A stretch of DNA of 64,000 nucleotides from Laetmonice hystrix (lineage: Eukaryota). The notes below the pieces were generated by a model. The model made no database searches, was not told the DNA's origin, and saw nothing but the letters and a program-made list of their open reading frames with translations. The stretch lies in NCBI GenBank assembly GCA_965235115.1, contig OZ249446.1, positions 28,086,001 to 28,150,000 on the forward strand, given 5' to 3'. This document shows positions 12,301-47,433 of this stretch, piece after piece (within the stretch, counting starts at the first letter, position 1; each line of letters opens with the position of its first letter). Position numbers and translations under genes: made by a program.

Positions 12301-15300
12301 CATTAGGCCGGACAAACACATCCTGCCACCGGGAAATGAACTTGGCCAGGTCAGTCAGGTCTGCGCCAGCCAGCTCAGCGCCCTGTACCATGTCGGCCAG
12401 GTGAGCTGGCAGTGACACGCCGGCAACGACAACAGGCAAATCGCAGGTACGGGGGTCGAAGTCGCCGCGCCAGTCGAACGGGGCATCACCCACAATGTCA
12501 GGGGTGGGGTTAGCGGGGTCCTCCGGCTCCCATGGCTCGCGGGGCACAGGGGCAGACAAGTCGGCCACCACGAACGCGGGGGCGCCGGCGTCAGGGGGCC
12601 AGGGCAGAGAAACACTGCCGCTCGGCTCGACGACTGCGAGGTGGTCAGATGACAGTTTACCCCGACGGACGGTGACGGCGGTGAGGGAACCCGGAGGGAG
12701 GATGGCAGGATCACACTCGACGGTGAACCCAGGTAGGGAGCCATCTGACACGAGGGCAACAGAGAGCACTGTGTGGTTCGATGGAGCGGGTGTGAGGGAG
12801 CGACGACCAGTCAACGGGAAAGGGCGGCCCTGAAGGTGAAGGACACCCGCAAGCCAATCAAGGCGTGCCCCGTAAGTGGCGAAAAAGTCGGCGCCCAACA
12901 GGCCGTGGGGCCCACCAAGGTCACAGACCAGGGCACAAACGGGGAAAACGGAGCTGTCAACAGTCAGTAGGCAGTCCCACTGCCCATGGACGTTCAGTCG
13001 ATCACCACCGGCCGAATGCAGGTGGATAACATGGTTAGTGTCCAGTTCACCGGGGGGTATGCGGCCCTCAAGGACCGCCGCGGGGAGACACGTGCGCATG
13101 GCACCAGTGTCAACCAACATTAAGATCGTGACATCTCCCACAGTGGCGCTGAGGTACCACTCGCAGGGGCCCGACACGCGGGCAACAACGCTGTCAGGAA
13201 CGGGTGAACCGGCCGGCGGGACGCATTGGAGATCAGTAGGGTCCCACCCGACATGAAACGCGGAGTAGGGTGGGCTGTCCGAGTCAAGGGAGTCGCTGTC
13301 CGCCGGTTGGGGATCGTCAGATGAGTCCCGACAGGCCCCATCTGCTGGGCCTGAGGGGGGCTCTGTCACAGCGCTCACTTTCGCGAAGTTCACCTTGCGC
13401 TGGTGCTGCTTGCTCGTGGGGCACTCCCGGGCCCAGTGACCTGGCTGGTGACATCTGAAGCATGGGCCATCGGGTGAAGGTTTGGGGGCAGGCCCTGCGG
13501 GGCCGCGAGGGTCTGCAGCCCTGGGCGGCGTAACGGGTGCCCTACCTCTGCGAGAGTGGAGGGCCAATCCATCTACTTTGCGGCCAAGACTGGCCATCAT
13601 CGTTTCCAGTCTCTGGACTCGGTGGAGCAGGTCCGACTGGTGTGGGGCTGACGGAGGCGGGTCGTCAGGCCGGTGCTGGTCAGCAACAGGATGAGGAGCG
13701 GGGCGTGGGGGCTTGCCTTGCAAGTGGCGGCTGCCCTCCTGCGGGGGGCGCTGGGTGCGCCTGTCCACCCAGGCTTGCTCGATAGCCTGGGGTTGAGGAT
13801 CATTGCCGGAGTCAGTGGACGCAGGGTTGGCCACGTGGCCAACTAGCCCCTCACGGCTCTTACGTCGCACCATAATGCGGTTTAAACGCGATGCCTCCTC
13901 GGCGGCAGCGAGCAACGTCGGGGGGTTTAGTTCTGCCAGTCGCTGTCCAAGTTCTTGGTTACGCAGGCCATCACAGAACTGGGTGACCAACCAGGAGGCT
14001 GAATCTGGGTCACCACCATGCACTCTAATGGCTAAAGTGCACAACGCATCCCGGAACTGCATGAAGGTCTCGCCTTTTTCCTGGCGCCGGTCATGCAGCT
14101 CAGTGATGCACTCGTCCAGCTGGCGGTGAGGTGCATAAGTTCCGCGCAAGCGGTCGATGCATGCGGAGTAGGTACGGCGGGCACTCGGGATGGCCATCAA
14201 GGTGGTGCGGGCCTTGCCCTGGACAAGGGACTGCAACCGATCACAACGGACCTGGTCAGACCAGCCATTGTTGTCAGCTGCCTCCTGAAAATGGGCGAAC
14301 CATGTCCGCCAGGACTCGACATCCGGGTTAAACGGGCGGACGTCCATGCGTGTACGGAGAAGAGAGGCCGCGGGAAGGGCATTGGTTAACGCTGGGGGGC
14401 CATCCTCCATCAAGTCAGGTGACCGGTTCTGCACTGCTGCAGTGATAGGGTCAGATGGCCAGGAAGGCGCACCTCCCTGTCGTGGGGGAGCACGGGGCCA
14501 TGTCTCCGGGCCAACAAGGGCAGGTGGGCCGTCCGCAGGGTGGCGCAAATACGGGGAGTAGCGGCCGGCATGTACATGGCCAAGTGTGTACCCGCTATCG
14601 GTCTCGCGCGGTGGGGGAGCAAACATGCTCTCACCTGCCAGTCGCGGGTGTATGGACCGGGTCACGGGCGGCGGCGGCGGCGGCTGGTGGGCAGGGCCCA
14701 CCCACTCCGGGCGGCGCGAGGGCGTGTGGAAGGCCGGCTGATCCTGGCGATCAGGCGGGGCCGGGGGGCGTGTACGGACGAGTTGGTCCAGCCAGGCCAC
14801 GGAATGCGTAGGGGGGCGGGGCCGGTCCCAAGTACCAACATCATCAGCAGGGCCCAACCCGGTCGGGGGTGGGACAGCCCTGGTGAGGAGTGGAGGGGGG
14901 TGGGCACGGTCCCAAGTACCGACGTCATCAGCAGGGCCCAACCCGGTTGGGGGTGGGACAGCCCTGGTGAGGAGTGGAGGGGGGTGGGCACGGTCCCAAG
15001 TACCGACGTCATCAGCAGGGCCCAACCCGGTTGGGGGTGGGACAGCCCTGGTGAGGAGTGGAGGGGGGTGGGCACGGTCCCAAGTACCGACGTCATCAGC
15101 AGGGCCCAACCCGGTTGGGGGTGGGACAGCCCTGGTGAGGAGTGGAGGGGGGTGGGCACGGTCCCAAGTACCGACTTCATCAGCAGGGCCCAACCCGGTC
15201 GGGGGTGGGACAGCCCTGGTGAGGGGTGTAGGGGGGTGGGCCCCGACAGTGGGCGGGGAATCATGCGAGGTGGCCCCTGCAGTGCCCCGTAAAGGGGGGT

Positions 15301-15730
15301 TGTGGACGAGACGAGTGAGGGTCAACTGCAGTTGGTCCAACTGTGCGCGTTGGAGTTCGTCACGCTGACGCTCCCGCTCGCGTTGCAGGTTGTCACGCTC
15401 ATCCATGCGCGACAGCACCTGAGCCAGGTAGTGAGCAAGGGGGTCGCCACCCCCGGCCGGCCGTTGGGCGGTGGGGGCTGGCGGTGCGACGGCAGAACGA
15501 TAGACGGGGTCGGAGGGCGGGTCAGGAGGGCCGGGCCCAGGGGAACCCCAATAGTGTGAGCGGGTGCGGTGGGCAACGGCGGCGTCGTCGACGCCCTGCG
15601 GTGGTCCGGCATCGGGCCGCGGCGAGACAGGTCGCCCCCCACCCCCCGCGGCAGCGAGTGGCGGGGGCGGGGAACCCGGACGGGGGGGACCCGGGGCGGC
15701 ACTGCCGAGCGGCAGAGGCGGGTGAGACAT
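9368..15730 (-). CDS. gag-pol: Gypsy-A fused Gag-Pol polyprotein (2120 aa)
   Basis: Gag core (FNPDVESWRTWFAHF), CCHC knuckle CFRCHQPGHWAREC, protease LVDTGA, RT (LRFCIDYR...FVDD), RNase H LDTDASGG, IN zinc-binding region HASPQACH...CLECVPC, DDE core (VDILGP / HSDQGREFES / VERFNRT), GPY/F motif GPYLV. No stops. Confidence 0.97.
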   Translation of the reverse strand: MSHPPLPLGSAAPGPPRPGSPPPPLAAAGGGGRPVSPRPDAGPPQGVDDAAVAHRTRSHYWGSPGPGPPDPPSDPVYRSAVAPPAPTAQRPAGGGDPLAHYLAQVLSRMDERDNLQRERERQRDELQRAQLDQLQLTLTRLVHNPPLRGTAGATSHDSPPTVGAHPPTPLTRAVPPPTGLGPADEVGTWDRAHPPPLLTRAVPPPTGLGPADDVGTWDRAHPPPLLTRAVPPPTGLGPADDVGTWDRAHPPPLLTRAVPPPTGLGPADDVGTWDRAHPPPLLTRAVPPPTGLGPADDVGTWDRPRPPTHSVAWLDQLVRTRPPAPPDRQDQPAFHTPSRRPEWVGPAHQPPPPPPVTRSIHPRLAGESMFAPPPRETDSGYTLGHVHAGRYSPYLRHPADGPPALVGPETWPRAPPRQGGAPSWPSDPITAAVQNRSPDLMEDGPPALTNALPAASLLRTRMDVRPFNPDVESWRTWFAHFQEAADNNGWSDQVRCDRLQSLVQGKARTTLMAIPSARRTYSACIDRLRGTYAPHRQLDECITELHDRRQEKGETFMQFRDALCTLAIRVHGGDPDSASWLVTQFCDGLRNQELGQRLAELNPPTLLAAAEEASRLNRIMVRRKSREGLVGHVANPASTDSGNDPQPQAIEQAWVDRRTQRPPQEGSRHLQGKPPRPAPHPVADQHRPDDPPPSAPHQSDLLHRVQRLETMMASLGRKVDGLALHSRRGRAPVTPPRAADPRGPAGPAPKPSPDGPCFRCHQPGHWARECPTSKQHQRKVNFAKVSAVTEPPSGPADGACRDSSDDPQPADSDSLDSDSPPYSAFHVGWDPTDLQCVPPAGSPVPDSVVARVSGPCEWYLSATVGDVTILMLVDTGAMRTCLPAAVLEGRIPPGELDTNHVIHLHSAGGDRLNVHGQWDCLLTVDSSVFPVCALVCDLGGPHGLLGADFFATYGARLDWLAGVLHLQGRPFPLTGRRSLTPAPSNHTVLSVALVSDGSLPGFTVECDPAILPPGSLTAVTVRRGKLSSDHLAVVEPSGSVSLPWPPDAGAPAFVVADLSAPVPREPWEPEDPANPTPDIVGDAPFDWRGDFDPRTCDLPVVVAGVSLPAHLADMVQGAELAGADLTDLAKFISRWQDVFVRPNAPLGRTDRAVHVIDTQDARPIKVRPRPVPSAMREACAQQLEDMLADGIITPSSSPWSAPIVMAKKKDGGLRFCIDYRELNAVTVKDSYPMPRTEDCLEVLGGNSWFCSVDLASGFWQIPLDPASREKTAFSTDRGLYEFTVMPYGLCNAPATFERLIDSLLQGIIGDGLAPFVDDVTVCGTGISSVFDRLDQLFSRLYNAGLTLKPKKCVLFRRRVEFLGHVVSSEGIHTQPDKIARVANWPTPRSQKQVRSFLGLAAYYQRFVPDYAAKAAPLYRLVGKNVPFLWTDECQRNFDRLKSDLVSAPVLAFPHPTARYILDTDASGGAMGAVLSQTVDGQERVIAYAAKMFHKSQRRYCTTLRELAAVVTFVRKFRKYLYGRQFTIRTDHASLVWLARFRDSDDMLARWLAYLYTYDWDIQHRPGIRHGNADALSRYPLDTKPIRCHRNGCRDCCATPSAAEPAVRAASLPDTSDHSSEWWLPVMSLSDLRATQRADPHVGRACILLDGDVRPPPEVTRDAAAETRSLLAQWPSVHLHDGILVREYKVQTPHPHTRLQVVAPQSIRHLIFQALHASPQACHLGGTRTYNLITQRFYWPGCSAAIRRWCLECVPCARAKPGPGKGRAPLRQDSVSAPMERVAVDILGPLRETPAGNEYVLVACDYFTKWVQVWPLPDHRAPTVAQALVTDLFLPFGAPTQLHSDQGREFESRLIAALCRGYNIDKTRTTPYRPQSDGLVERFNRTILQMLRTFVDGDPTDWDTRIFYCAAAYRATVHDSTGCTPNFLMLGREVNVPAAIMFGAVHVALDRPCPVAYVERVLQAHWAAHAFVRAHVGRAARRQKRQYDRALKPRTFQVGDAVMVLDVPRANTKLGAPWAGPYLVIERVNDLVYVIAMGTTGRRCLHVDLLKPAPPSPDPDPPATPHPPPHPQSPGVVSTTPDGPPVSPDADTPQGPGPPSPARRPQRHRRLPGWRMLDLYS
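14815..15245 (-). repeat. 84-bp tandem repeat (about 5 units) in the Gypsy-A gag N-terminal region
   Basis: Encodes repeated TRAVPPPTGLGPAD(D/E)VGTWDRAHPPPLL (28 aa); ggtcccaagtacc recurs about every 84 nt. Confidence 0.95.
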
Positions 15731-16561
15731 GGCCCAGTAGCGACACTAAGTCACAGTCACGAACAGTACCAACGGTAAACGCACAATAAAATCCCACCGG
15801 GGGGGGGGGGGGGGGGAAATTGGCCAAGCCAAAGGCGAGCAGCCACAAAAAAAACGGCTGCCTCACAGTCACAGGATAGCAAGCGAAAATGAGGGTTGAC
15901 TCTAAAGTCTAGTATTAAACTCCAGTCGACAGCAAACAGCCACCCGGCCAGGTCTACAGCTAGACCAGACCAGTCTAGAACTACTAAACTAGTATAAGGG
16001 CCAGTCAGCACGACAACAGCAAGCACACAGCAAGCAACCACCCGACCGGGCCTAGGCCCAGATTCATCTACGACCAGAAAATACAATGTAGCAAATGTTT
16101 GCAATGAGGTCACACCACTCACAACAACAACAGGGAGGGGGGGATGGGCTCTACCTGTATATTATACTATCTAGAGAACCAGTGCCGGCGACACGACTGA
16201 ACCCACAAGAGAAAAAAATATATAATGACAGCGTCAGGCACACGGACAGATCATAACCAAATCACCCTGACAAAACTAAGGGTCCAGTCTAGACCGTACA
16301 CACATAGGTACACAGTGTCACAGGCTAAACCAACACGCACACTGCCACTACGACACTAGGCCCAAGCGGGGAGCCAGACCTGAGGCGGAGCCGGGGCTAG
16401 GCTCACCCGGCAACGGGGGAGCCCCAGGCGGGCACCGGGGCGAGAGGGGGGGGGGGGGGGGGCGGGGCGGCCACACAAGCAGCCTGCAAAAAAAACGGGC
16501 AAAAAGACGGAAAAACAAGACAGGTCTAAACAAGACAGCGGGGGAGAAAGTCACCGGACGA

Positions 16562-16579
16562 CAACGGGTTGCGGGACCA
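16562..16579 (-). promoter_or_regulatory. Gypsy-A primer binding site (tRNA not assigned)
   Basis: TGGTCCCGCAACCCG begins 1 nt inside the 5' LTR end. TGGTCC fits a tRNA with A73 and C1:G72 (Tyr-type), but the rest could not be matched from memory. Confidence 0.7.
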
Positions 16580-16580
16580 A

Positions 16581-17261
16581 TGTAACACTATTACTAGCCT
16601 ACCATAGACGTGCTATTACCAATACTTGACAACTACCGCCGACCAGTCCAAACGTGGCAGCAGCCGGTGTTACGGCTAGGGGCGGCGAGGCCTAGCCCAG
16701 CCGCTGTCACAGACTCCCGTGAGGTTCTCCCCTGGGACCCGGGAAACGCCCCAAACGAGGGGGGGGGGCGGCTTAATGCCCTACAACTTGTACAAAGTAT
16801 GGGGTCTATCCCTGATAGGCCTAGACTACGGCTGCGAGGTGGGTGGCCCGGCCAACCCCTTCCCACTCCCTGAGTGGGGACACAAAATGGCGGCCGCAGA
16901 TGGCAAGAACAACACGAGGCCTACTCACGTTTAACACAAGTCGTGTTGACCAAAGTGAGGCACCCGGACGCCTACAGACGGGTCAGACTCCACTACCACA
17001 CTAGGCCTAACTACCCCCTACTGCACGCGGAACCTGGCAGGTCTTCCTATGAGTGGGGGTGACACGTAGATCCACGAGACTTCGTCCCCGGGCACAGATG
17101 GGCAAAGCTAGCCAAACACGTCCGTGCTCATGGAGGGATCTGTGAAGTCTGCCTCTCCCTCGTCGGACGGCCCAGGTCACCCGCCAACGCGCATGCGCGG
17201 GCGGGTCACTGGGTCACCGGAATGCCAATCGTCAGAAGACGAGGGAAATACAAACGCCACA
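16581..17261 (-). repeat. Gypsy-A 5' LTR (681 bp)
   Basis: Near-identical to 7450-8132; adjacent to the PBS. Confidence 0.97.
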
Positions 17262-24420: not shown

Positions 24421-26004
24421 CCCCCTCGGGGGGGGGGGGTCTATGGCTATCTATTACCCAAAACTGATATAGACGAGGACAATGACTTTGTCGCATTCAT
24501 TCGAATGTTAATGAGGAGTACAAAAGATTTAAATAGATCTATCGTTCAAAAATAAATCTGGACGAGGGGTGACAGTGGTTATGTATGGCCGGACAAAAAC
24601 ATGGATGCGGGGGACGAGGGCTAAATATTGCTCTGTAGGAATGTTACTTAGCGCGGCAGTTACTAACTGGGGGTTATAGGACACATGGGCGAAGGGGTTA
24701 GCCTATGGCCCACTGGAAATATACAGTGTTTTATAGACCAGGAGGACAATGGAATGTTCCTGAGGAGCGCAATAGATCGTTCAAAAAGTAATGTGGACTA
24801 GGGGACAGTCGTTAAATATGACCCTATCCAAACAAATGGGGGTTAAAGGAAATATGGACCAAGGTTGCATGGGCCCCATTCAAATATAGGCCTAGACGAC
24901 GAGGACAATCGAATGTTGACGACCAGGGCAATTACTAAATATGGAGGAGGGGGTCAGTCGTTCAATATGGCCCCACAGGAACATCTCCGCGGGGGGGGGG
25001 GGGGGGGCTATGGCTATCTATGACCCAAAAGAAATCAGGAGGACAATCGATAAATATCGTTTAAAAAGTAATATGGACGAGGGGGGGGGGCAGTCGTTGA
25101 ATATGGCCCCACAGGAATTGGAATGTTCATGAGGAGGACAGTGGATTAATATTGTTGTAAAAGTAATATGGACGAGGGGGCTGTGGTTAAATAAGGCCCG
25201 ACCGAAACATGGATGAGGGGAACAATAGCTAAATATTGCTCTGTTGGAAATTGACCAGGAGGACAATGGCCAAGTTGCATTCATTGGAATGTTCATGAGG
25301 AGGGCTATGGATAAATATAGTTCAAAACGTAATATCGCCTAGGGGGCAGTTGTTAAATATGACCCTACCGAAACATCGACGCGGGGGACTAGGCCTATGG
25401 CCAATGGAATGTTCACGACGAGGGCAATGACTAAATATGGTAACATGGAGGAAGGGGGGGGGGGCTGTCGTTGAATATGGGCCCACAGGAACATTTACGC
25501 GGGGGGAGGGGCTATGGCTATCTTTTACTCAAAATAAATATAGACCAGGAGGACAATTGCTAAGTGGCATTCATTCGAATGTTCACGAGGAGGGCAGTGG
25601 ATAAATATAGTCGTGAAAGTAATATGGACGAGGGGGCAGTCGTTAAATAAAGCCCGACAGAAACATGGATGAGGGGCACGATGGCTAAATATTACTCTGT
25701 TGAAATGTGAGAGGGGCAGTGACTCAATCGGGGTTATAGGAAAAATGCACGAAGGGGTTGTGGCTCACTGCAAATATGAACCAGGAAGACAATGGAATGT
25801 TCATGAGGAGGGCAATGACTTAATATTTTGTAAAATGTAACATGGACTAGGGGGCAGTCGTTAAATATGGCCCCACAGAAACATCGACACGGGGGGGGGG
25901 GGGGCTATGGCTATCTATGACCCAAAAGAAATATGGACCAGGAGGACAATTATTGCTAAGTAGCATTCATTTGAATGTTCATGAGGAGGGCAATAAATAA
26001 ATAT

Positions 26005-26783
26005 TGTAACGTCCCTGGCCTCGTTGCCAGGTTAGCTACTGGGCTCCCAAGTCCCTTAATATGTGACACTGGATGAAAAGAACACAAACACACATATTGG
26101 AGTTGAGAAAGAAATGGTTTTATTCAAATACGGGTAGTGATAAACCTATCCTGCCTCTGGTCTAAAATAGGGTTAGTACTTCTCGTTGTATTCCTGTCGT
26201 AAAAATGAATATAATGAATATACAAGACTCAAGTCTTGTCTGAGATCCGAATATTCCCGGCGGAGAACTAACCTAAAAGATCTAACATCTTGTTTATAAT
26301 GAATTGGATCTGAATGTTCACATTCAGCTTTTTGGCCTAAATAATCAGAAAAACCCTTACTCTGGCCTTAGGCTTATAGCCATATCTGACGAACAGACCT
26401 TACACGTATTTCCTATACGTTTCAAGCTCTGACGACAGCTTGGCATAAATTGCTGGTACAAGCATTCTAATACATGCCTATTGGCACGTCTACCGTACAT
26501 ACCTGGACTTAGAGGTAGCCATTTCAGTGGTTTCGGCTTGTAAGTTACTCAGGGCAGTATTCCGTCCCTTCTTAGCTGGAGGTTTAACGACACTCCCAGA
26601 CTTATTGCAGAGACCGGGCTTTTATATCAGAGGGATATGCATATGCATGCCAGGGGAGCCAATGAGAATACGCTGGCTGACGGCGCCACTGGGCCCTGGT
26701 CAGCTGGGGGTGCATCGCCGGGGTAGCGACGTGCTTAGTGCACATGCACTTGACACAGACGTTGGGCCAGCCCAATCGTCACA
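26005..26783 (-). repeat. Gypsy-B 3' LTR (779 bp)
   Basis: Differs from the 5' LTR by about 4 substitutions, a 3-nt indel and replacement of 42 nt by CATC at about 26713. Confidence 0.96.
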
Positions 26784-27077
26784 CACCTCCCTTTCCAAAA
26801 AGACATATGTTACACATATAACAATAGTTACTATCCTACACTAAGTTCTAGACCTACGGGTACAATAAAGGAGCAGCATGGGTTAGGGACGACCCACTGT
26901 CTTTGACGATAATCTGAAATCAAGACAAGAGTCAACAATACAAGTCAAACAAAATGATCCAGGTTCAAATTTTAATAGGCAATATGCACAGGGTGCTCCA
27001 GACAACTCTAATTAGTCCTTTAAATGTCCCGATAAATGTTCCTGTTTGGTTGAGACACAGACAGTTAAGCCTACAAG

Positions 27078-28184
27078 TTACAACATCTCGGATGCCTGTG
27101 CCTGGCTGCGACCCTGCAGGGAGAGGGACCGGACGTCGGACGTCGTAAGTGGAAACACTTGTGTTTGTGTCAGATGGGGGTACAGCACATATCCCCTGCT
27201 AATCCTGACGTTCCTGAGGTCGGCAACTATGGATGGTCGACCCGCCCTGGACTGCTCCAGTTCGTTGTTCCTTTCTTGTAGCTCCCGGCTTTTCTGTTCC
27301 AGGCGTGTTATCTTCTCCTGGAGCTCTTGGACTTCCAAAGTCTTTAGCTTTCTCTTAAGATCGTCCCTCATCGTCCTCATCTCATGTTCCTTCCTCTCCA
27401 GGCCCCCTATGACGGTGGTGAGGACCCGTTGATCCTGGGTGTCAGGTTGATGTCCCTGGATGGCCTCCTCCAACTCCCTCTCTCCGGGTCTGGTTGATGG
27501 GACAAGGGGTCCGCCTTTCCACACGGTGGATCTTTGTTCCGGGGGCAGTGCTCCTGCTGGCAGCTTTGTCGGAAACTGGCACGTGGTGTGTCCGGAAAAG
27601 GGGTCACGATGTGGGGTGACTGAGCCTGTTGCCTGGTACCTCACGTTTTCCCTCAAAGAACAAAACCAAACCTTGTCCTTCAGTTCCAGGGCCCTCTTGG
27701 CTTGTGCTTCATGGGCCGTGGTGATGTGCCGTTTCAAGGAACCTCGTTCTGGTGACAGGAAGCCACAGTCCGGCACTGGACACCAGTGAAGGATTATCTC
27801 TGGTTGGTGAAGATTACGCCAATGCTTGGCGAAGGCCGCATACTGCCGACTGTCTTGGCAGAGGTTCATCTGCCGGCATACTTCCACTGGACAAGGGAAG
27901 ATAACTGGCTTCCCTGTCACGGTGCTCGGAAGTCGTTGACACTTTTGAGCAGTGCCTTTCGGGTTGGGAATGGGTACGGTAGCCTGGCACACTTTAGCAG
28001 TGCCTTTAGCTTTAAGAGGGGTGGCCTGACACGTTAAATTCGTGCCTTTATTGCCAGGGGAATGTGGTAGGGGACTCAAGGGTGGAAAAAGGGCGCCATC
28101 ATCTTCATTTAACTCATCATAATCTAATTCGACCTCCAGGGCGTCCAGTTCGGTCAGATCATGGCTAAAAAGGGAAGAGGACAT
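27078..28184 (-). CDS. Gypsy-B ORF3 (368 aa): two C2H2-like zinc fingers plus a coiled coil; not an envelope protein
   Basis: ATG lies 16 nt after the pol stop. Motifs CPVEVC...KHWRNLH and CPVPDC...KRHITTAH; heptad region LERKEHEMRTMRDDLKRKLKTLEVQELQEKITRLEQKSRELQERNNELEQ. No signal peptide or TM segment seen. Confidence 0.85.
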   Translation of the reverse strand: MSSSLFSHDLTELDALEVELDYDELNEDDGALFPPLSPLPHSPGNKGTNLTCQATPLKAKGTAKVCQATVPIPNPKGTAQKCQRLPSTVTGKPVIFPCPVEVCRQMNLCQDSRQYAAFAKHWRNLHQPEIILHWCPVPDCGFLSPERGSLKRHITTAHEAQAKRALELKDKVWFCSLRENVRYQATGSVTPHRDPFSGHTTCQFPTKLPAGALPPEQRSTVWKGGPLVPSTRPGERELEEAIQGHQPDTQDQRVLTTVIGGLERKEHEMRTMRDDLKRKLKTLEVQELQEKITRLEQKSRELQERNNELEQSRAGRPSIVADLRNVRISRGYVLYPHLTQTQVFPLTTSDVRSLSLQGRSQAQASEML

Positions 28185-28200
28185 CTTTGTTTTATTTCAG

Positions 28201-31200
28201 TTAAAGGTCCATCCGAACTGGTGGTTTCCTGACCCTGGTGCCTCGTCTTAACGTCGTGCCGTCTGTAGTGACAGTTTTTGGGTCGGAAGGAGAGGTATTA
28301 TTCCTGTTTGATTCAGGATTTAGGCTCTCCTCTGACTCACTGTCATCGGTTATTAGGAATGATGCATCATGCCTGTCAGGTGCTGACTCATTAACAGTCT
28401 CCTTAACTTCTAACCAACTTTGTGGTGCATTGATGCCTTGGTATGGTTTCAAGGCATCCACATGCACAGTGATTACTTTACTGTGCTCTGCTTGTTGGAT
28501 TTGGTAGGTGACATTAGTTAATTTCTTAACAACTAGGAATGGTCCACGCCAGCCCTTTCCCAACTTTTCCTTAGCCTGAGGGGGGTAGTAGTGCCATACC
28601 CAGTCACCTTCTTTGAATGTACCCAAACCCGAGTCTCTATCATACAGACGTTTCTGCCTTACTGCACTTTTCTGTAGAAAAATGCGTACATATGTGAACG
28701 CTTCTTCTGTGGCCCGTCGAACCCACTGCACATACTCGATAGGGCACCTAGTCTGCTTGCTATTAGGAGGCTGCCCTACCATGACATCTAATGGTACATT
28801 AGTCTCCCTACCCAACATAAGAAGGTTTGGAGTGCAGTTTGTGCTCTCGTGTACAGAGGCTCGGTATGCCATCATGACATACATAAGATGATTGTCCCAA
28901 TCATCCCGGTTCTCATTCACATACATGGCAAGCATCTGTTGGAGGGTTCTATTAAATCGTTCTACAAGGCCATCGGACTGGGGTCTGTATGAAGTCGTTC
29001 GAGTTTTGTGCACTTGCATGAGGTCACAGATCTGTTTGAATAGATCAGATTCAAAATTTCTACCCTGATCTGAATGTAATTGTCGGGGACATCCTAAACG
29101 ACAATAGCCACTTTTTCTAATGGAATGCCAACTGCTTCTTGGGTGAGTTTAGCACGCCACCTTTTTGGACGGTTTTCTACGGGCACAGATGTCACATTTC
29201 TGACACCAACTGATGATGTCTCTCTTGTAACTTGGCCAATAAAACCTTTGCCTAATGTTCTTAGTCAAGCGTGTGACCCCTAAGTGACCTGCAGTACGGC
29301 TAGAGTGGAGGGAATGCAGAACCTTCTCTCGTAGTTCTGTAGGAGCTACCAGCTGCATCACTGGAATGCTACTCCCATCGGGATACCATTCTCTGTATAA
29401 CAGTCCATCCCGTACATGGAGTACCTTCCATTGTGCCCAATAAGATTTAGTAACTGCATCATATGGGGCAACCTCAGCCCATCTTGGCTTTTCGTGAGAT
29501 TGCTCCTTCCACTTTAGTACCACCTGAATACAAGGATCGGCCTGTTGCCATTGTTTCAGCTGCGCCTGATCATACTGCAACAACCATTGGCCTTCACCAT
29601 TCTTTACATCAGATTGACCAGCCTTACTGGGTACCTGCAAGTTCTGTTTTCTAGATGAATCTTTAGTTCGTTTGCCGGCATGAACAACGTTCATCTTGTG
29701 TACAGAACAATCTGGACAGTCAACACGTCTACAACTGCGAGTTGTGGGCAATCGTGAAAGGGCATCAGCATTGGCATGTTTGGAGCCTTTACGGTGAGTA
29801 ATTTGGTAATCATATGTCTCAAGTATGGTTAACCATCTAGATGTTACCTCATCATGATTAGTAAAGTTCTTTAGCCAAACCAGAGAGGCATGGTCAGTTC
29901 GGATTATAAACTTCTGACCATATAAGTAATGCCTAAAATGCTTTACAAACTCAACTACAGCATATAGTTCTTTCTTTGTAGTGCAATAGTTCCTGCGTGA
30001 CTTATCAAGGGATTTGCTGGCATATGCAATGGCACGTTCAGTACCATCCTGTACCTGATGTAACACGGCGCCGATGCCATCATTGCTGGCGTCTGTATCT
30101 AAAATAAACGTGCCCTCTTGAGTTGGATAGGCTAACACCTCAGCTGAGATTAGGCTCTGTTTTAATTTATCGAATGCTCCTTCACACTCCTCTGTCCATT
30201 CAAATTTTACCCCTTTTCTCATCAGGTTACGTAGAGGAGCAGAAATAGTGGAAAAGTTATCTATGAACTGTCTATAATAGGAGGCGAAACCATGGAAACT
30301 ACGGACTTCTCGAGCATTACAAGGTCGAGGCCAAGTGGAGACAGCTTTGATCTTCTCAGGATCACAACTTACACCTTCTGCAGAAACGACATGACCCAGA
30401 AATTGCAACTGTCGTTTGAACAATTTGCATTTCTTGGCCTTTAGCTTAAGACCAGCATCTCTAAACCTATCAAATACCACAGAAAGGTTAGCTAGGGTAT
30501 CTTCAAATGTCTTTCCAAAACAGATTACGTCGTCCAAATATACTAGGCATAATTGCCATTGCAAGCCACGTAGTACAAGTTCTATTAGACGCTCAAATGT
30601 AGCAGGTGCGTTTGTTAAACCGAAGGGCATGACATTAAATTGAAACAAACCCTTTCTAGTCGCAAAGGCAGTTTTTTCTTTATCCGCCTTATCCATAGGG
30701 ACCTGCCAATAGCCACTGGCACAATCGATTGTACAAAACCATTCAGCGCCTGCTAATGTATCTATGGTTTCGTCGATGCGTGGTAGTGGATAAGCATCCT
30801 TTTGAGTAACCTGGTTAAGTTTCCTATAGTCGACACAAAACCTAATTGTCCCGTCCTTCTTGGTTACTAGGACGATGGGTGATGCCCAGGGACTAGTGCT
30901 AGGTTTGATAACTCCCTGCTTCAGCATCTTATCAACTTCCTCATCAGCAACACTACGGCGTTGAATCGGCAAACGCCGAACCGGTTGCTTGATAGGCCTG
31001 CTATCTCCTGTATTAATTTTATGAGTAACTAGATTAGTACCTCCTAGTTCACCACCAGGTTCAGCAAAAATGTCTGCATAAGACGAAACCAACTTATGTA
31101 CAAGTGCAGTCTGAGCTGCAGTCAAATCCCGACTACTGTCATCTACCAATGCCTGCAGATGTTCAGGTAATACTCTACCACTGGCATCTGTAGCCAATTG

Positions 31201-31989
31201 TTCCTTATCTGGAGTGCACTCCAATTCTGTGAAATGTGATATGGGTTGTAGTAATGCCACAGCTACACCTTTCTTAAGAGTTACTGGTTCATTTCGGAGA
31301 TTGATAACGGTTAAAGGTACGGTTTTATTGGCTGCATTCACTAAAGCCTTACCAAAGATCACGCCTGACCTATGAGTTATGGATGCCAATCCTTCTACAG
31401 CTCCTAACCCTCGAGGTATTGGCTTCCTAGAATGTTTAGCCTGAGCAATGCCTTCTACCATCATCTGACTGTCAGCTGGTATATGTATGGTGTTAGCTAA
31501 ATGTACCCTGCAACAACCTTCATTGTCCTCCCTTTGCAATTGAATCTTTTGAGATCCTATCTCTAAGATACCTTTAGAGAAATCAAGCTTTGGTTGAAGC
31601 ATGTCAATGAAATCTAATCCAAGCAAACCTTCCAAACTTCCTAGGTTTGAAACTAATACAGGATGTTTATATGACACATTGCCAAGTCGGATTATAGCCA
31701 TGAATTCACCTAACACATCCATTGAACTTCCATCAGCTAAGGTAAAGTTCATATTACATGGATGTAGCTGTACATCAGTCATTTTGATTTTCTTGTAAAT
31801 CGACTGATTAATTATCGTGCAAGACGCGCCAGTATCAACAAGAAATTTAACTTTGTGCCCGTTCACTGGAACACTCATATACCATCCATTTTGACTGTGT
31901 ATCTGAAGCATTTGTTTCTGAATATTTGGCCCTTTAATCTGTCGACTGGCTGAGCTGACGGCCTCCAGGTCAGCCAATTTTAGTTTTCC
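28201..31989 (-). pseudogene. pol: Gypsy-B pol (PR-RT-RH-IN), disrupted in integrase
   Basis: FLVDTGAS, YLDD, LDTDASND, HHCC. A 1-nt frameshift occurs at about 29162. EKVAI is then joined directly to RLGCPRQLHSDQG at about 29101, deleting the first catalytic Asp region. pol is in the -1 frame relative to gag at GGAAAAC-TAA (31983-31989). Confidence 0.93.
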
Positions 31990-33257
31990 GAATTAGAGGC
32001 TTCAGCTTGCTCTTTATACTTTGTACAGTTTCTTTGAACATGACCTAGTTCCTTACAGTACCAGCATCTAAGATTGCGATGCCTATTGCCTAAACCAGAC
32101 CTCTGCTGTTGACTCATTGCCAGTACTGGAGGTTTCTTAGCATATGTGCTACATTCATTGACCACTTCAAAATCTACTGCTAGAGTGATGGCATCATTCA
32201 TTGTCTTTGGATGGTGGAAATGTACATGTTGCCTCATTGAGTGACTCAATCCGGTTTTAAATTGATCGAGCAACCACTCTTCTTGGGCCTCTGTGCTCTG
32301 ATTGGGAAATGCCCTTTTAACCAATCTTCTCAATTCATAACCATAGTCAATTAGTTTCTCATTTGGTTTTCTGAACCGTTTTCTGAATTCGGATTTATAC
32401 ACATCTTCCCTGCCAGATGGGTTAAACCTATGTGTTAGTGCTTCCACCATAGCAGCATAACTTAATTGTAAGGCTCTGGGCAAGTTGGTTATAGTGCTTC
32501 TAGCCTCTTTTGTCATGCTCATACCCAGTTGAATACCCTTTTCACTTTCAGACCACTCGTTCCATTGGCTTACTTTCTCAAAATAGTCTAAGTATTCCTG
32601 CAAATCACTTTCACCAGTATACATCTCAGGGTCTTTCTGACGCCTCTTGATGTGTTGCTGAGATTGTGATTGCACAGGAAAATAAGACTCAACCCTTTGT
32701 GGTTGATTCTGAATAGGTAGTAAATACGCCATTGGACTTGTGGGTTGAGTGTGGATAGGTGTTGAATACACCATTGGACCTGCTGATTGGGTGTGGATGG
32801 GTGTTGAATACACCCTTTGGCCTGTTGGTGTTTGCACACTTGTAGGATGTGCACTGTACCATCCGGCAATGGGAGGTGGTGGAGTGATCCAGGGACTGGT
32901 GTAATTAGTGGCTTGACCTGTATTAGGCATTTGACTGGGAGTTCCAGTACTACACACTGGACCTTTGTTACTGTATGTGGGCGTGGTTACTGTGTAAGTC
33001 TCATGAAGAGTGCCAGCTGAGTAACTGTACGCAGGTATGTGATTCTCGTGAATTGATTGGTAAGTGGGTACGGGTGCACTTGTTATTGGTAAAACTGTTT
33101 GTGCTCTCAACAGTGTTGAGTCTTCTAGGTCAGATTTTCTAACCACCCGTTCTTCCTTGTGCACAGTTAAAGGATCCCTGAGTGTATCGCTGTCAGTACT
33201 GTTTTATACGTGAAACCATTGTGAAACCGTTTCGTGTAATGATCTCCACCAAGACAT
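31980..33257 (-). pseudogene. gag: Gypsy-B gag with a premature stop near the N terminus
   Basis: KDPEMYTGESDLQEYLDYFE capsid-like motif; CWYCKELGHVQRNC knuckle. An in-frame ATG at 33257 (MSWWRSL...) is separated from the 394-codon ORF by one TAA at 33204-33206. Confidence 0.88.
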
Positions 33258-33381
33258 CTTGACAGTATTTTCAATTATTAAATACAGTAAATATCAATTT
33301 AATTCAAACTGATTACTCAGCTAAATATATGAACTCAGTTAAATGCAGGATAATAACAAAATAGCCTGTAAACCAATTATT

Positions 33382-33578
33382 GATCACAGTACCAATTTGT
33401 GTAATTCTCCACATTTGGGCATAGTACTAAATTGTGTTTCAGTTGTGTCTCTCCATCCAGAATTAGTCACGGTACCAAACTGTGTAATTCTTCGGAATTA
33501 CTTCAAAATTGGTCGCGGCACCAAATTGTGTAATTCTTCAGAATTACTTTAAAATGGTCACGGCACCAAATTGTGTAA
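33382..33578 (-). promoter_or_regulatory. Tandem tRNA-His-type PBS cassettes (45-nt period)
   Basis: TGGTGCCGTGACC (33556-33568), TGGTGCCGCGACC (33511-33523), TGGTACCGTGACT (33465-33477) and degenerate TGGTACTGTGATC (33382-33394). Each is preceded on the - strand by TTACA-CA(A/G)(T/A)T. Confidence 0.88.
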
Positions 33579-34387
33579 CGTCCCTGGCCTCGTTGCCAGG
33601 TTAGCTACTGGGCTCCCAAGTCCCTTAATATGTGACACTGGATGAAAAGAACACAAACACACATATTGGAGTTGAGAAAGAAATGGTTTTATTCAAATAC
33701 GGGTAGTGATAAACCTATCCTGCCTCTGGTCTAAAATAGGGTTAGTACTTCTCGTTGTATTCCTGTCGTAAAAATGAATATAATGAATATACAAGACTCA
33801 AGTCTTGTCTGAGATCCGAATATTCCCGGCGGAGAACTAACCTAAAAGATCTAACATCTTGTTTATAATGAATTGGATCTGAATGTTCACATTCAGCTTT
33901 TTGGCCTAAATAATCAGAAAAACCCTTACTCTGGCCTTAGGCTTATAGCCATATCTGACGAGCAGACCTTACACGTATTTCCTATACGTTTCAAGCTCTG
34001 ACGACAGCTTGGCATAAATTGCTGGTACAAGCATTCTTATACATGCCTATTGGCACGTCTACCGCACATACCTGGACTTAGAGGTAGCCATTTCAGTGGT
34101 TTCGGCTTGTAAGTTACTCAGGGCAGTATTCCGTCCCTTCTTAGCTGGAGGTTTAACGACACTCCCAGACTTATTGCAGAGACCGGGCTTTTATATCAGA
34201 GGGATATGCATATGCATGCCAGGGGAGCCAATGAGAATACGCTGGCTGACGGCACTGGGCCCTGGTCAGCTGGGGGTGGGATACTTAGTCATGGGTGGCT
34301 GCACACACAGGCGATGTGTGGCCGGGGTAGCGACGTGCTTAGTGCACATGCACTTGACACAGACTTTGGGCCAGCCCAATCGTCACA
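33574..34387 (-). repeat. Gypsy-B 5' LTR (814 bp)
   Basis: Direct repeat of 26005-26783; adjacent to the PBS. Confidence 0.96.
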
Positions 34388-34494
34388 ATATCGTTGAGAA
34401 AGTCATATGGACGAGGGGGGGGGCAGTTCTTGAATATGGCCCCACAGGAACATCTACGCGCCGTGGGGGTGGGCTATGGCTATCTTTGATCCAA

Positions 34495-35284
34495 CACTGC
34501 AAAAAGGACCGTCTGCCTGCGAGACGTTTTGAGAGACGCTGTTCTTGTCACACCTGGGGAGACGGTCTAAAGTGTTTAGTGTTTACAAAATGTACACCGT
34601 CTCATGAAATGTCCACCGTCTACAATAATGTCGGAAAAAGGAAGTGTATACAGAATGTCAATCGTCTCACAAAATGTATACTGAGAGGGATATTCACCTA
34701 GATTCTCCGTGGTAGAGAATATTAAAAAAATAAATAAAAAAAAAGTATGCCAGTGTGGGATTCGAACCCAATACCCTTGTCACTAAATTCCTACGCTCTA
34801 CCACTGAGCCAACCTTGCACGTGAGTAAGTTTTAGAGTGTTGCTGTAAATGAATGACCACAGTGGTAAAGAACTATGCATGACGTCATACCACGGTTACG
34901 TCACGGCAGGCTTATAAAGGATAATAATCAGTCGCAGAGTTGGCCCAGTTTCGACTGAACCAACTGAACCGTTTCATTTCATACGCGAGTCCGGTGACAG
35001 TTGACACAATTTCTTATTAACGTTAGACACTGAACAATTAGGAGACCATCCTGTACCATGAGACAGTTGACAATTGGAGGACACTTTAGTTTAGAACTTT
35101 GTCTCTGAATCGTTTTTTTGTGTTATTTAGTGCTATTTGGTGTACTCAAAACGTGTGTACTCATAAAATAGCGTCTCAAAAAAACGTTCAAAAAAGGTTA
35201 CCGTCTATATCTGGACATTCAGTAAACATTAACGTTTTTTCGGCGTCTAAATTTCGACGTTCTGTAGACATCTTTTTTGCAGTG
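34495..35284. mobile_element. 790-bp non-autonomous CMC/EnSpm-like element
   Basis: TIRs cactgcaaaaag / cttttttgcagtg; 2-bp TSD AA (34493-34494, 35285-35286). Removing it restores the satellite sequence tatctttgatccaaaataaatatagac. Confidence 0.88.
34747..34820 (-). pseudogene. tRNA-derived sequence (SINE-head-like) inside the CACTG element
   Basis: The - strand reads gtgcaaggTTGGCTCAGTGGTAGAGcgtagg...GGGTTCGAATCCcacactggca, with A and B boxes. The anticodon and acceptor stems do not pair. Confidence 0.7.
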
Positions 35285-36338
35285 AAAATAAATATAGACG
35301 AGGAGGACAATGGCTAAGTGGCATTCATTCGAATGTTCATGAGGAGGGCAGTGGATAAATATCGTCGTGAAAGTAATATGGACGAGGGGGCAGTCGTTAA
35401 AGAAGGCCCGACAGAAACATGGATGAGGGGCACGATGGCTAAATATTACTCTGTAGGAATATTACTGAGAGAAGCAGTGACTCAATGGGGGTTATAGGAA
35501 AAATGCACGAAGGGGTTGTGGCTCACTGCAAATATGAACCAGGAAGACAATGGAATGTTCATGAGGAGGGCAATGACTTAATATTTGGTAAAATGTAACA
35601 TGGAAGAGGGGGCAGTCGTTAAATATGGCCCCACAGAAACATCGACGCGGCGGGGGGGGGGGGGGGGGGGGGCTATGGCTATCTATGACCCAAAAGAAAT
35701 ATGGACCAGGAGGACAATGGCTAAGTAGCATTCATTTGAATGTTCATGAGGAGGGAAATCGATAAATATCGTTGAGAAAGTCATATGGACGAGGGGGGGG
35801 GGCAGTCGTTGAATATGGCCCACAGGAACATCTCCGCGCCGTTGGGGGTGGGCTATGTCTATCTTTGACCCAAAATAAATATAGACCAGGAGGACAATGG
35901 CTAAGTGGCATTCATTCGAATGTTCATGAGGAGGGCAGTTAATAAATATCGTTGTAAAAGCAATATGTACTAGGGGGCAGTCGTTAACTAAGGCCAGACA
36001 GAAACATGGATGAGGGGCAAGATGGCTAAATATTACTCTGTAGGAATGTTACTGAGAGGGGCAGTGACTCAATCGGGGTTATAGGAAATATGCATGAAGG
36101 GGTTATGGTCCACTTCAAATATGAACTAGGAGGACAATGGAATGTTCATGAGGAGGGCAATGACTTTGTAATATGTAACATGGAAGAGGGGGCAGTCGTT
36201 AAATACAGCCCCACAGAAACATCGACGCGGGGGGGGGGGGGGGGGGCTATGGCTGTCTATGACCCGGAAGAAATATGGAACAGGTACTCGCGGCGGGGGG
36301 GGGGGGGCTATCCATGACCCAAAATATTCAAAATATTC

Positions 36339-39905: not shown

Positions 39906-41024
39906 TGTAAAGTCTACCAACTTTTTGAATTTCCCACCCTCTCAGATATTTGAAGTTTTGCCACCTCTCACTAGAGGGCAGTGGGCGGTCATAGCCGTCC
40001 TTGCAGGAAGATGGCGCTACACGTTTATTGAGTATCTTTTAATAATTATAACCTAATTATAATTATGTAGGTAATACATTTATATAGGTAGTTCTGGCAC
40101 CGTGTGTTTTAATAGGTATGTTTATGAAAGTAATACATGTATAATTATGTTGGTGTAGGTACAAGTGGTCAGGGTGAAGCTGAAGTTAGATTTCTCAAAT
40201 ATACGAGTAGTATTTTGTAAAGCTTCACATTTATTGTTATTATATTTTACAAGAACAGTGCTGCATGTACAATTATGTTTGTGTAGGTACAAGTGGTCAG
40301 GGTGAAGCGTTCCTGGCAGAAAGTGATATATTTTAAACTATAGTAATAATATAGAAAGCCTGACATTGTTGTAAGGTACAACTAGAGTATGAACCTTGGT
40401 ACACTATCTATATGTTATCAGGAAGGGTCAGTCACTGGACAGTCCAGCTGGCCAGCTTCACGCGACAATAGGTTATCTGGAAGGAACGGTCAGAGTCCAC
40501 CTAAGGGTTTGAGACCATGTTCACATTTTACTCTTTATATTTACCATAGAGGGCGCTGTTGCTATTATAGTTAACCCTTGGATATTACCAGGTTTAAGCC
40601 ACTAGATGGCACTGTTGTTCACAATATGAACACACCTTAACTTCCAGTGATCATGAGTGATTTGTATCTCAGTATCAAGGTCCAGTATTGATAGGCAGGG
40701 ATACTGGACCCAAGTTGTATAAATAGGGAGAAGAAATAAAGCTTATTAGACTCGACTTCACCACCACCTCGGTCTCATCGTTCTCCTTTGACGCTACAGC
40801 ACCGTTAGGATGCGGTTGGGCTCTCCACCTTCAGGCTCATGGTGAAGCCAGGTAACTAGCCTACTTAGTATACTACATTCATTCGGCCCTTTAGGCACTA
40901 AGTAGGCACGAGTATGAAATGCTCATCTAAATTCCAAATTTATTAATTGTGTTTGTTAGTTGTCACGAAACACAACTAGCTGGTGACCACAAGTTAAACA
41001 AAGAATCGGGTCACAATCTTTACA
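39906..41024 (+). repeat. Gypsy-C 5' LTR (1119 bp)
   Basis: TGTAAAG...CTTTACA ends; TATAAATA at 40718-40725; AATAAA at 40735-40740; an internal direct repeat of about 43 bp at about 40138 and 40266. Confidence 0.97.
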
Positions 41025-41025
41025 T

Positions 41026-41043
41026 TGGTGACCACGATGGGAC
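41026..41043 (+). promoter_or_regulatory. Gypsy-C primer binding site, tRNA-Trp-like
   Basis: TGGTGACCACGATGGGAC begins 1 nt after the LTR. The first 8 nt match the tRNA-Trp complement TGGTGACC(CCGACGTGA); there are mismatches after that. Confidence 0.7.
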
Positions 41044-41156
41044 TCTATTGATGTAAGTGTGGACCGACAGGACGCAGCCCACTGAGTAGAAGGAAGTCAG
41101 CTACGTGGTTCCCCATTCAAAAGTAGTAGGACGAAGTACAAAGTAGAAGTACAAAG

Positions 41157-41214
41157 ATGGATGAACAACAACAGCAACAACTGCAACAGCAACAACTGCA
41201 ACAGCAGCAACTGC

Positions 41215-41251
<37 letters not shown>

Positions 41252-42266
41252 GGAAGAGGCGCCACTCACAGCGGCAGAGATGCAACGGCTACAACAGCAC
41301 CGCTTCAATCTAGAAGCCACTAGACAAGTTCGACATCGACTAGAACAGCACGCAAAGAGGATTGGAGTGGCAGATGGTGCGAACCGGGAAGGCCTAAGAG
41401 AATGGATCCGTGGAATTGACAACGCGAGTGCATGGGTAAATGCTAGCGACAGCATGCTCCTAGAAATGGTAGGCTACCTCGTCACGGGAAGCTTGGCAAC
41501 AATGGTAAGAAATTATATTGTTGAATCCTTGCCCGATGAACGCTCCTGGGAACATATAAAAACGGCAATCGTAAAAGCTTTCCTGGATGAAGATGAGAAA
41601 GAATACCTTCGCGCTAAGGTAGAGAAAATAGTGCAAAATCCGTATGAGGATTCCAGGGAATACGGTAGACGTTATAAGGAAGCAGTGACAAGGGCTTACG
41701 ATGCTGAAGAGTTGGCGCTACCGCTAGTAAAGGATCGGCTTATTAAACAGTACATCCAAGGATTACAAAATAGGACAGCACGCACCCAAGTGCACTTCCA
41801 ACGACCATCCACCTTAGATGGCGCCATAGATTCTGCCAACTCAGCCGCACGAGCAGTGGGTCTAGCAGAGGTAGCAGAACGCTATGAAGAACCGATGGAT
41901 ATAGGGACCTTCCCCAACATGAAGCCAGCAGCAAGAGAAAAGAAAGAAAATGAAGAGTACACCCAACTCTTGAAGACAGTACAGGGAGAAATGAAATCAA
42001 TTCGAAAACTACTGGAGAAGCGTGGTATCAGTGAAACGGGAAGAGCTTCACAAGAGACAGGATATTCTGAAGTGAGAAGAGCACCAAGACAGACAGGATA
42101 TTCTAAACCAGTGCGCACACCCGTTCAAAGAACCGAGGACAGGAGCAATAAGAAGTGTTATCACTGCCAGGAGCTGGGCCACTTCGCTCGTGATTGCCGG
42201 AAGAGACTGGAGACTGCCGTGCAAGCAGCAGTGGAGTCACAGATAAAACGTCTTGATTTAAACTAG
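41157..42266 (+). CDS. gag: Gypsy-C Gag (369 aa) with N-terminal polyQ
   Basis: LREWIRGID...YLVTGSL capsid-like region, EEPMDIG motif, CYHCQELGHFARDC knuckle. Confidence 0.95.
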
Positions 42267-47394: not shown

Positions 47395-47433
47395 GTTTGA
47401 TAGTATGTATCAAACTAATGAGTGGGGAAGGTA

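Follow-up and report, generated by a model that had tools for sequence, protein, structure and literature searches.

A third open reading frame in a Ty3/gypsy element of Laetmonice hystrix: a likely spliced zinc-finger accessory regulator with a UAP56-like motif

What does a Ty3/gypsy element encode between pol and its 3′ long terminal repeat (LTR) when the product does not look like an envelope protein? The question is raised by a 64,000-nt stretch of the genome of the marine animal Laetmonice hystrix (the window; GenBank assembly GCA_965235115.1, contig OZ249446.1, positions 28,086,001 to 28,150,000 of the forward strand), in which a gypsy element carries a third open reading frame (ORF), here called ORF3. 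Our analysis suggests that ORF3 is likely a spliced (predicted) accessory regulator of an LTR retroelement and as such of a known kind; the hypothesis that it mimics the RNA helicase UAP56 is the new part. An earlier note, made from the sequence alone, had described an intact 368-codon sense ORF past the pol stop and ahead of the polypurine tract, and this is what is found: the frame runs on the minus strand from 28184 to 27078, its ATG lies 16 nt from the pol stop codon (28201-28203) and the polypurine tract is at 26784-26796. The features are listed in Table 1.

Table 1. Features of the element carrying ORF3, of ORF3 itself and of the host UAP56/DDX39 gene (the last lies outside the window)
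Feature	Position	Strand	Remarks
ORF3	27078..28184	-	368 codons, sense to element; ATG 28184; predicted exon 2 from 28164
LDYDE motif	28113..28127	-	residues 20-24
Two-finger domain	27519..27905	-	residues 94-222; two C2H2-type fingers, conserved strand and N..[FY]..PG extension
Coiled coil	27249..27431	-	residues 252-312, helix of about 60 residues
C-terminal beta-hairpin/helix domain	27081..27239	-	residues 316-368; family-specific
Predicted coding part of ORF3 exon 1, inside 5′ LTR	34072..34091	-	ATG, six codons and two bases, then GTATGT donor, phase 2
Predicted intron	28165..34071	-	5907 nt; removes rest of LTR, primer-binding site, gag and pol
Predicted splice acceptor	28165..28181	-	polypyrimidine tract and AG; conserved across subfamilies
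Conserved block in 3′ untranslated region	26870..26930	-	second pyrimidine tract and CAG (AG ends 26914), then conserved hairpin
Full-length Ty3/gypsy element	26005..34387	-	8383 bp; target-site duplication ATAT, 4 bp
5′ LTR	33574..34387	-	TATA box 34195; AATAAA 33693
tRNA-His primer-binding site	33390..33570	-	with three further degenerate repeats
gag	31980..33257	-	capsid-like domain, CCHC knuckle; in-frame stop at codon 18 in this copy
pol	28201..31992	-	about 135 nt deleted in integrase and stop 29149-29151 in this copy
Polypurine tract	26784..26796	-	
3′ LTR	26005..26783	-	
Host UAP56/DDX39 gene (L151)	G000:C8:16713591	-	

A search of the 627-Mb genome gives 43 matches to ORF3, and the 30 loci fetched represent 25 distinct sites. 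Integrase lies upstream on the same strand at 19 of these, the remaining six being deleted or truncated copies. The copies fall into at least six subfamilies, one of near-identical copies and at least five others at about 45-55% protein identity. Between subfamilies (10 of 10 pairs from five subfamilies), the proportion of synonymous differences is saturated (0.78-0.88) as compared to 0.30-0.38 for nonsynonymous differences, and the linker is the least constrained part. The young subfamily allows no verdict, as its pairs differ by only 1-5 synonymous and 2-11 nonsynonymous changes (ratios 0.23-1.55). On these sequence comparisons, ORF3 is a real gene of the element under purifying selection. 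A second gypsy lineage (reverse transcriptase 54-56% identical), found with a scallop protein as query, has a remote ORF3 in the same slot, with pol upstream on the same strand at 16 of the 17 loci fetched (out of 38 matches, many of which belong to the first lineage). The proteins of this second lineage (L115-L131, for example G000:C2:36150413) have the same two-finger domain and LDYDE and another C-terminal tail (SPLSRWGRSRF-like). The earlier note had proposed both comparisons, the position of homologues between integrase and the 3′ LTR and selection across copies, and both bear out its view of an element gene. It had also drawn on the fact that ORF3 stays open while gag and pol are broken. 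The lesions are real in this copy; the argument is empty, because two random lesions would both miss ORF3 with a p of 0.68 and because a sister copy has all three frames (gag, pol and ORF3) open.

The slot is that of env in errantiviruses and env-bearing gypsy elements, where, according to a general statement in the text of PMC5408684, env is made from a spliced message. The highest 19-residue hydropathy mean in ORF3 is 0.87; by hydropathy, the only test used, there is no signal peptide or transmembrane stretch, as had been noticed earlier. No viral fusion-protein family in Pfam is matched by any of 26 family members, and none in BFVD is matched at E≤0.001. With no hydrophobic segment and no fusion-protein match, the env reading of ORF3 was rejected. 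A young gypsy element elsewhere in the window (39906-48337, plus strand; LTRs 99.9% identical, gag and pol open) has an env-like ORF (45448-47394) that matches Baculo_F. In contrast to this real env, ORF3 lacks a hydrophobic segment.

The protein is instead built around two zinc fingers. Finger 1 is C98-x4-C103-x17-H121-x4-H126 and finger 2 is C135-x4-C140-x12-H153-x4-H158; the two C-x4-C fingers had been recognised correctly, with the histidine spacing (H-x4-H in both) given as H-x3/4-H. In 26 aligned sequences of 20-55% identity, H121, W122, H126, C135, C140, H153 and H158 are invariant, and C98 is nearly so. The structure model (mean predicted local distance difference test score, pLDDT, 77.5) has a disordered N-terminus, with pLDDT below 56 at the LDYDE motif, a confident finger domain (approximately residues 91-222; pLDDT 88-98 across 91-220), residues 252-312 as a helix and, at the C-terminus, a small domain. 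In the model, the conserved extension and the fingers fold as one domain. The coiled coil is present as first described, at about 60 rather than 50 residues. The conserved Cys2-His2 ligands, the modelled beta-beta-alpha fold and the profile matches to Protein Data Bank (PDB) entries place the fingers among C2H2 zinc fingers, below every Pfam cut-off. The best of these profile matches is TFIIIA (1tf6 residues 70-125, E 1.4e-6), followed by YY1 and GLI (to 5e-4). C-x4-C spacing is common to TFIIIA-type finger pairs and ORF3, which differs by the 17-residue loop and invariant HW of finger 1 and by the extension folded into the domain. A Foldseek search of the first model against the PDB gave nothing at E≤0.001 (Tramtrack is weak, at E 1.4), and BFVD gave nothing. 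Since every row of the VIA-align fold search lies on the coiled coil, that search says next to nothing about the finger and C-terminal domains.

A two-copy model gives a dimer score of 0.32, against 0.11 for the best control, with at least 86% of contacts agreeing between runs and pLDDT of at least 53; the predicted interface comprises residues 241-287. In calibration, 21 of 30 solved pairs and none of 23 single chains attained the mark for a dimer (for animals, 7 of 16 and 0 of 30 singles). The model thus predicts that the ORF3 product is probably oligomeric, as a dimer.

The protein family extends beyond this genome. A profile search of 1.84 billion representatives gave 246 matches at E≤0.001; among the best 150 of the 246, 23 have both the finger and the C-terminal domain, 38 have the finger domain alone and 15 have only the C-terminal one, where 20 of these proteins match by construction since the domain profiles were built from them. 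No Pfam family is matched by more than two of the 26 members at E≤0.05, and no match of the window protein reaches its cut-off. Word-index protein searches gave only one or two matches, and two metagenome scans for distant database homologues found no locus. By sequence, the ORF3 family is wide and has no Pfam entry and, in the searches made, no described match, in keeping with the view that it is neither env nor a characterised family. Two of the 20 representatives that were looked up are named, both as bivalve hypothetical proteins with the finger domain only. In proteins of Sinanodonta woodiana and Mizuhopecten yessoensis (P0004, P0023 and P0030), the two-finger domain occurs singly or in tandem arrays of up to 10. 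These bivalve proteins, judged by their domains, may be a host source or the result of domestication. As they are annotated as host genes, they would also suit the idea that ORF3 is a captured host zinc-finger gene carried passively. This is highly improbable: purifying selection across subfamilies contradicts passivity, the body of ORF3 is intronless and in the same slot in both lineages, and there is no host locus among the ORF3 loci read. Host capture confined to one copy, neutral evolution and a match to a described accessory ORF, any of which the earlier note would have counted against itself, were not found.

How would ORF3 be expressed? The ATG at 28184, at which the frame had been taken to start, occurs in this subfamily only, and translation probably begins elsewhere. 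What the subfamilies have in common is a phase-2 acceptor, a pyrimidine tract with an AG whose last base is 28165. In the 5′ LTR, an ATG is followed by a donor (34072/34071) approximately 120 nt past the TATA box. The ATG-to-donor distance in six subfamilies is 20, 17, 17, 17, 11 and 11 (or 23) nt, all in phase 2, and the first exons align poorly; because subfamilies B, C and F share descent, these count as three or four independent exon lengths only. As the conserved acceptor matches in phase the ATG-plus-donor exon in the 5′ LTR, the ORF3 message is probably spliced from a tiny LTR exon. In the second lineage, the acceptor lies immediately 5′ of an ATG. Genomic retrocopies of the spliced message were not found: 18 of 18 LTR-exon matches continue into the intron side, and 15 of 15 hairpin matches adjoin ORF3 loci. 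Three contig sets from one sample cover the element evenly with no joint at the predicted splice, which carries no weight either way.

Downstream of ORF3, the hairpin at 26870-26914 in the 3′ untranslated region (UTR) has modest covariation support, with a two-sided change in 2 of 13 pairs. The block that contains it has no match in Rfam, and a conserved donor pairing with its acceptor-like signal was not found. A coding exon at this place was rejected since the frame is not kept across subfamilies.

In the N-terminus, L-D-Y-x-E is the sole part kept between the two lineages. It is invariant in 10 of 10 aligned N-termini, and shuffling produces it at a frequency of 0.0003-0.003 per N-terminus. 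Outside this ten-sequence alignment, L129 reads ELDYDE, and L121 and L131, from one sublineage, are without the motif. The strict motif occurs in 7 of 46 N-termini of database homologues, compared with 0.01 expected from shuffling, and in none of 90 other matches. The host UAP56/DDX39 protein reads DLLDYDEEE and ORF3 reads ELDYDEL, the five residues LDYDE being identical; a scan of the genome with the host UAP56 pattern gave 9 matches (2 in the control), of which one is UAP56 and six belong to one tandem repeat. Residues 20-24 of ORF3 have the Leu and the D-Y-x-[DE] core of the UAP56 motif in a disordered acidic segment. A text search with the motif letters returned noise only. UAP56 (DDX39B) and ORF3 thus have in common an L-D-Y-[DE]-[DE] core and an acidic disordered N-terminus; ORF3 is without the helicase domains and without the second contact segment, and its docking to PCID2 is suggested by the sequence likeness.

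Human UAP56 docks with its residues 9-16 (E9 L10 L11 D12 Y13 E14 D15 D16) in the winged-helix groove of both GANP-PCID2 and LENG8-PCID2, D12, Y13 and D15 are critical, and the isolated peptide binds, according to the available text of PMC12216326, PMC12823420 and PMC13322074. The same accounts describe that tethered UAP56 promotes export of a reporter pre-mRNA, for which the motif is needed and ATPase activity (ATP hydrolysis) is not (PMC12216326, PMC12823420, PMC13322074). LENG8-PCID2-SEM1 leads to nuclear decay and TREX-2 to export, as set out in the accessible part of PMC13391367.

A genome-wide scan with LLDYE[DE][DE] gave 3 matches (1 in the control), of which only one falls in an open frame; it begins an ORF3 of another gypsy family, and the zinc finger of that ORF3 is unrelated. 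This third ORF3 type (L148/L159-L181; for example G000:C5:35435745, C10:20507052 and C12:7495726) has C-x2-C...H-x4-H followed by H[FL]PW...AC..C, no Pfam match, and a pol match nearby at 17 of the 20 loci read. One of its sublineages starts with LLDYEEDE or PDY[EN]EE after the acceptor, and another has long RG repeats.

Our preferred reading, to which we give a probability of roughly 45%, is that ORF3 is a dimeric nuclear adaptor, comparable to Rev or to CERV of Cer1, for the export of unspliced genomic RNA. The gene, its slot, the selection on it, the domain layout, the phase-matched donor and acceptor and the identity of the motif are observed, splicing and the dimer are predicted, and from there we infer the following steps. 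Transcription from the LTR would by default yield the spliced ORF3 message, because the strong donor sits about 120 nt past the TATA box; with splicing as the default, the genome-length RNA for Gag and Pol would need a way out, which is the logic of Rev and CERV. The ORF3 protein would enter the nucleus and dimerise, and its zinc fingers would bind the unspliced genomic RNA, with the 3′ UTR hairpin as candidate site. The dimer would then present two UAP56-like LDYDE motifs to host PCID2 complexes (TREX-2 and LENG8), and the genomic RNA would be exported instead of retained and degraded. The earlier note had offered a transactivator, an RNA chaperone or an anti-silencing factor. Its description of an element-encoded, selected and, by the model, probably oligomeric regulator is retained; none of the three functions is singled out, and the sequence evidence points to a more specific role, in which the UAP56-like motif would serve to export RNA from the nucleus or to evade RNA surveillance there. 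By extension, invertebrate gypsy elements may have evolved a group of spliced zinc-finger accessory proteins in which the UAP56/DDX39 motif is copied so as to take over or block, on behalf of unspliced genomes, the PCID2 switch between TREX-2 export and LENG8-PAXT decay, a tentative proposal that we hold at a little under even odds. The motif on two unrelated finger types would make this a repeated solution.

Several points weigh against the adaptor. The motif is only five residues long, and in human UAP56, loss of residues 1-28 lowers the affinity for TREX-2 only about 2.5-fold and RecA1 contacts matter too, as described in the available text of PMC12823420, so that by itself the motif could be a weak one. 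When PDB sequences were searched with a profile built from the ten N-termini, UAP56 was not recovered (one unrelated match), and 39 of the 46 database N-termini are without the strict motif, although many look truncated and the pattern skipped some family members. Of the sublineages of the third ORF3 type, one keeps the motif and two (10 loci) have open frames without it. With respect to splicing, in both copies of subfamily D that were read (L008 and L028), a single base puts the acceptor out of phase with the D-type donor; the donor reads GTATTC, a second ATG is in another phase, and an in-frame ATG is located just past the acceptor. The dimer score lies exactly at the mark, not above it, and a related gypsy element in the window is without ORF3. 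The fingers score best against TFIIIA, YY1 and GLI, which are mainly DNA binders, and an acidic stretch with a central Tyr also suits a transcriptional activation motif.

The last two points lead to the alternative of a transactivator of the element's own LTR, for which Tas/Bel1 of foamy viruses is the comparison. Here, the fingers of the dimer would bind U3 DNA and the acidic, disordered N-terminus would activate transcription. CTCF belongs with TFIIIA, YY1 and GLI among the closest DNA-binding relatives of the tandem fingers (Tramtrack weakly), basic stretches that resemble nuclear localisation signals precede finger 1 in many homologues (by eye), and several U3 motifs are conserved across six subfamilies. 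The gene also moves together with its presumed target. In subfamilies B and C (L064-L067), gag-pol is 95-99% identical in DNA to that of the window element, and ORF3, 3′ UTR, U3 and R barely align; the breakpoints fall where pol ends and at the poly(A) signal/U5. As near-identical gag-pol carries different cassettes, the 3′ cassette (ORF3-3′ UTR-U3-R) has been swapped by recombination. Template switching at R and at the pol end explains such a swap as well, and the U3 type does not track the ORF3 type: U3 identity is 89% between A and F and 85% between B and C, for ORF3s that are about 45-50% alike. Moreover, activation domains seldom keep an exact motif at 25% overall identity, and L-D-Y-x-E is invariant. 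Hairpins at the 5′ end of R that would resemble the transactivation response element (TAR) are no more stable than shuffles (z -1.4 to +0.9, 16 stretches). We regard a transactivator as unlikely.

Distinctly unlikely, in our view, is that ORF3 acts as a decoy, its motif plugging the LENG8-PCID2-SEM1 module of PAXT and thereby weakening nuclear retention and decay of intron-containing element RNA, with no hand-over at the pore. The genome does have genes that we take to be GANP-, LENG8- and SAC3D1-like (C13:25.52 Mb, C1:46.88 Mb and C2:48.79 Mb), and host PCID2 is not among the 7 PCI matches found in it. UAP56 attaches mainly through its motif to LENG8-PCID2 and GANP-PCID2 alike, by the accessible accounts in PMC13322074 and PMC13391367, and the latter adds that retained introns are over-represented among PAXT targets. 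Blocking the module in general would affect the export of host RNA too and be costly, and the conserved finger domain argues for a specific nucleic-acid target. A role in the particle or in integration, either as an RNA chaperone or as a tether that steers integration, is improbable. Zinc fingers and a coiled coil could bind genomic RNA or chromatin, and this copy lies inside a dispersed AT-rich repeat; the CCHC knuckle of Gag and the C-terminal domain of integrase are already present, and the predicted separate spliced expression and the UAP56-like motif would be left unexplained.

Returning to the adaptor, the nearest functional parallels are Rev and CERV. Rev has an arginine-rich RNA-binding helix and a CRM1 export signal, in place of which ORF3 would use zinc fingers and PCID2 complexes; no sequence or fold match between Rev and ORF3 was found. 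HIV-1 Rev and the Rev-like proteins of complex retroviruses are oligomeric regulators that are translated from spliced RNA and allow the unspliced genome to be exported, as summarised in the available text of PMC10309623. In Cer1, a Ty3/gypsy element of Caenorhabditis elegans, the spliced accessory protein CERV has a leucine zipper and a Cys-rich finger, is a predicted multimer and is needed for export of unspliced genomic RNA; it comprises 517 amino acids from five exons overlapping gag, with H/M/G-protein-like domains and a C4 loop, and its authors state that there is no homology beyond nematodes (PMC10309623, available text). Both are element-encoded accessory proteins with a finger and predicted multimerisation, the splicing of ORF3 being predicted. 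ORF3 differs from CERV as described there by its place 3′ of pol, two C2H2 fingers, a predicted first exon in the LTR and the UAP56-like motif, and the export function established for CERV is for ORF3 a proposal. ORF3 is not a member of the CERV family, from which it is set apart by the published architecture only.

Non-env third ORFs, captured or extra and with proposed auxiliary roles, are described for LTR retrotransposons of bdelloid rotifers and plants in the accessible parts of PMC5408684 and PMC7264820. Those in PMC5408684 are env-like, esterase, exonuclease and other types, unlike the zinc-finger ORF3; the words 'zinc' and 'finger' are absent from its main text, and a zinc-finger ORF was not found by terms in the available text of PMC13524379, PMC8220671 and PMC8556966. 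In the literature searched, mostly titles and abstracts and with supplements, Repbase/Dfam and subscription journals outside its scope, neither the ORF3 family nor a UAP56-motif mimic in a mobile element was found. Repbase/Dfam or subscription journals may hold an unnamed extra ORF of this family.

The element that carries ORF3 belongs to Ty3/gypsy by its LTRs, target-site duplication, primer-binding site, polypurine tract, gag and pol order of protease, reverse transcriptase, RNase H and integrase (Pfam). The two LTRs differ by 5 substitutions in 775 aligned bases, by which the element is young. Its primer-binding unit (33390-33570) consists of four repeats, three of them spaced by about 45 nt, and the copy number varies among element copies. 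In a deleted copy (L013, 3588-3662), the LTR is followed by the reverse complement of a whole tRNA-His(GTG) and an inverted piece of LTR; to judge from its sequence, this is an aberrant product of reverse transcription. By eye, a 20-nt stretch in R (33739-33758 and 26170-26189) looks complementary to the D-arm/anticodon stem of this tRNA-His, and a similar stretch is present in R of other subfamilies; it may serve as another primer-pairing site. Short degenerate repeats form a dispersed family (24430-26004, 34388-36330 and 48950-50010), and the element has inserted into one of its blocks. A gypsy element at 7450-17261 (minus strand) is GC-rich, with a single gag-pol frame of 2125 codons, 84-nt tandem repeats in gag and approximately 1.2 kb without a long ORF before the 3′ LTR.

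For only a few of the LTR retrotransposons that splice is it known how the unspliced genome is exported, and the UAP56-PCID2 switch between export and decay has been solved only recently. If the adaptor reading is true, it would add a third way for retroelement RNA to leave the nucleus, next to NXF1-binding elements and CRM1 adaptors, with a mechanism that is directly testable through a five-residue motif, a known pocket and an existing tethering assay, and a protein family without a Pfam entry would be named. 'Complex' retroelements with regulatory genes would then be common in marine invertebrates. Whatever the function, a predicted first coding exon in the LTR and subfamilies that exchange an ORF3-U3-R cassette are unusual.
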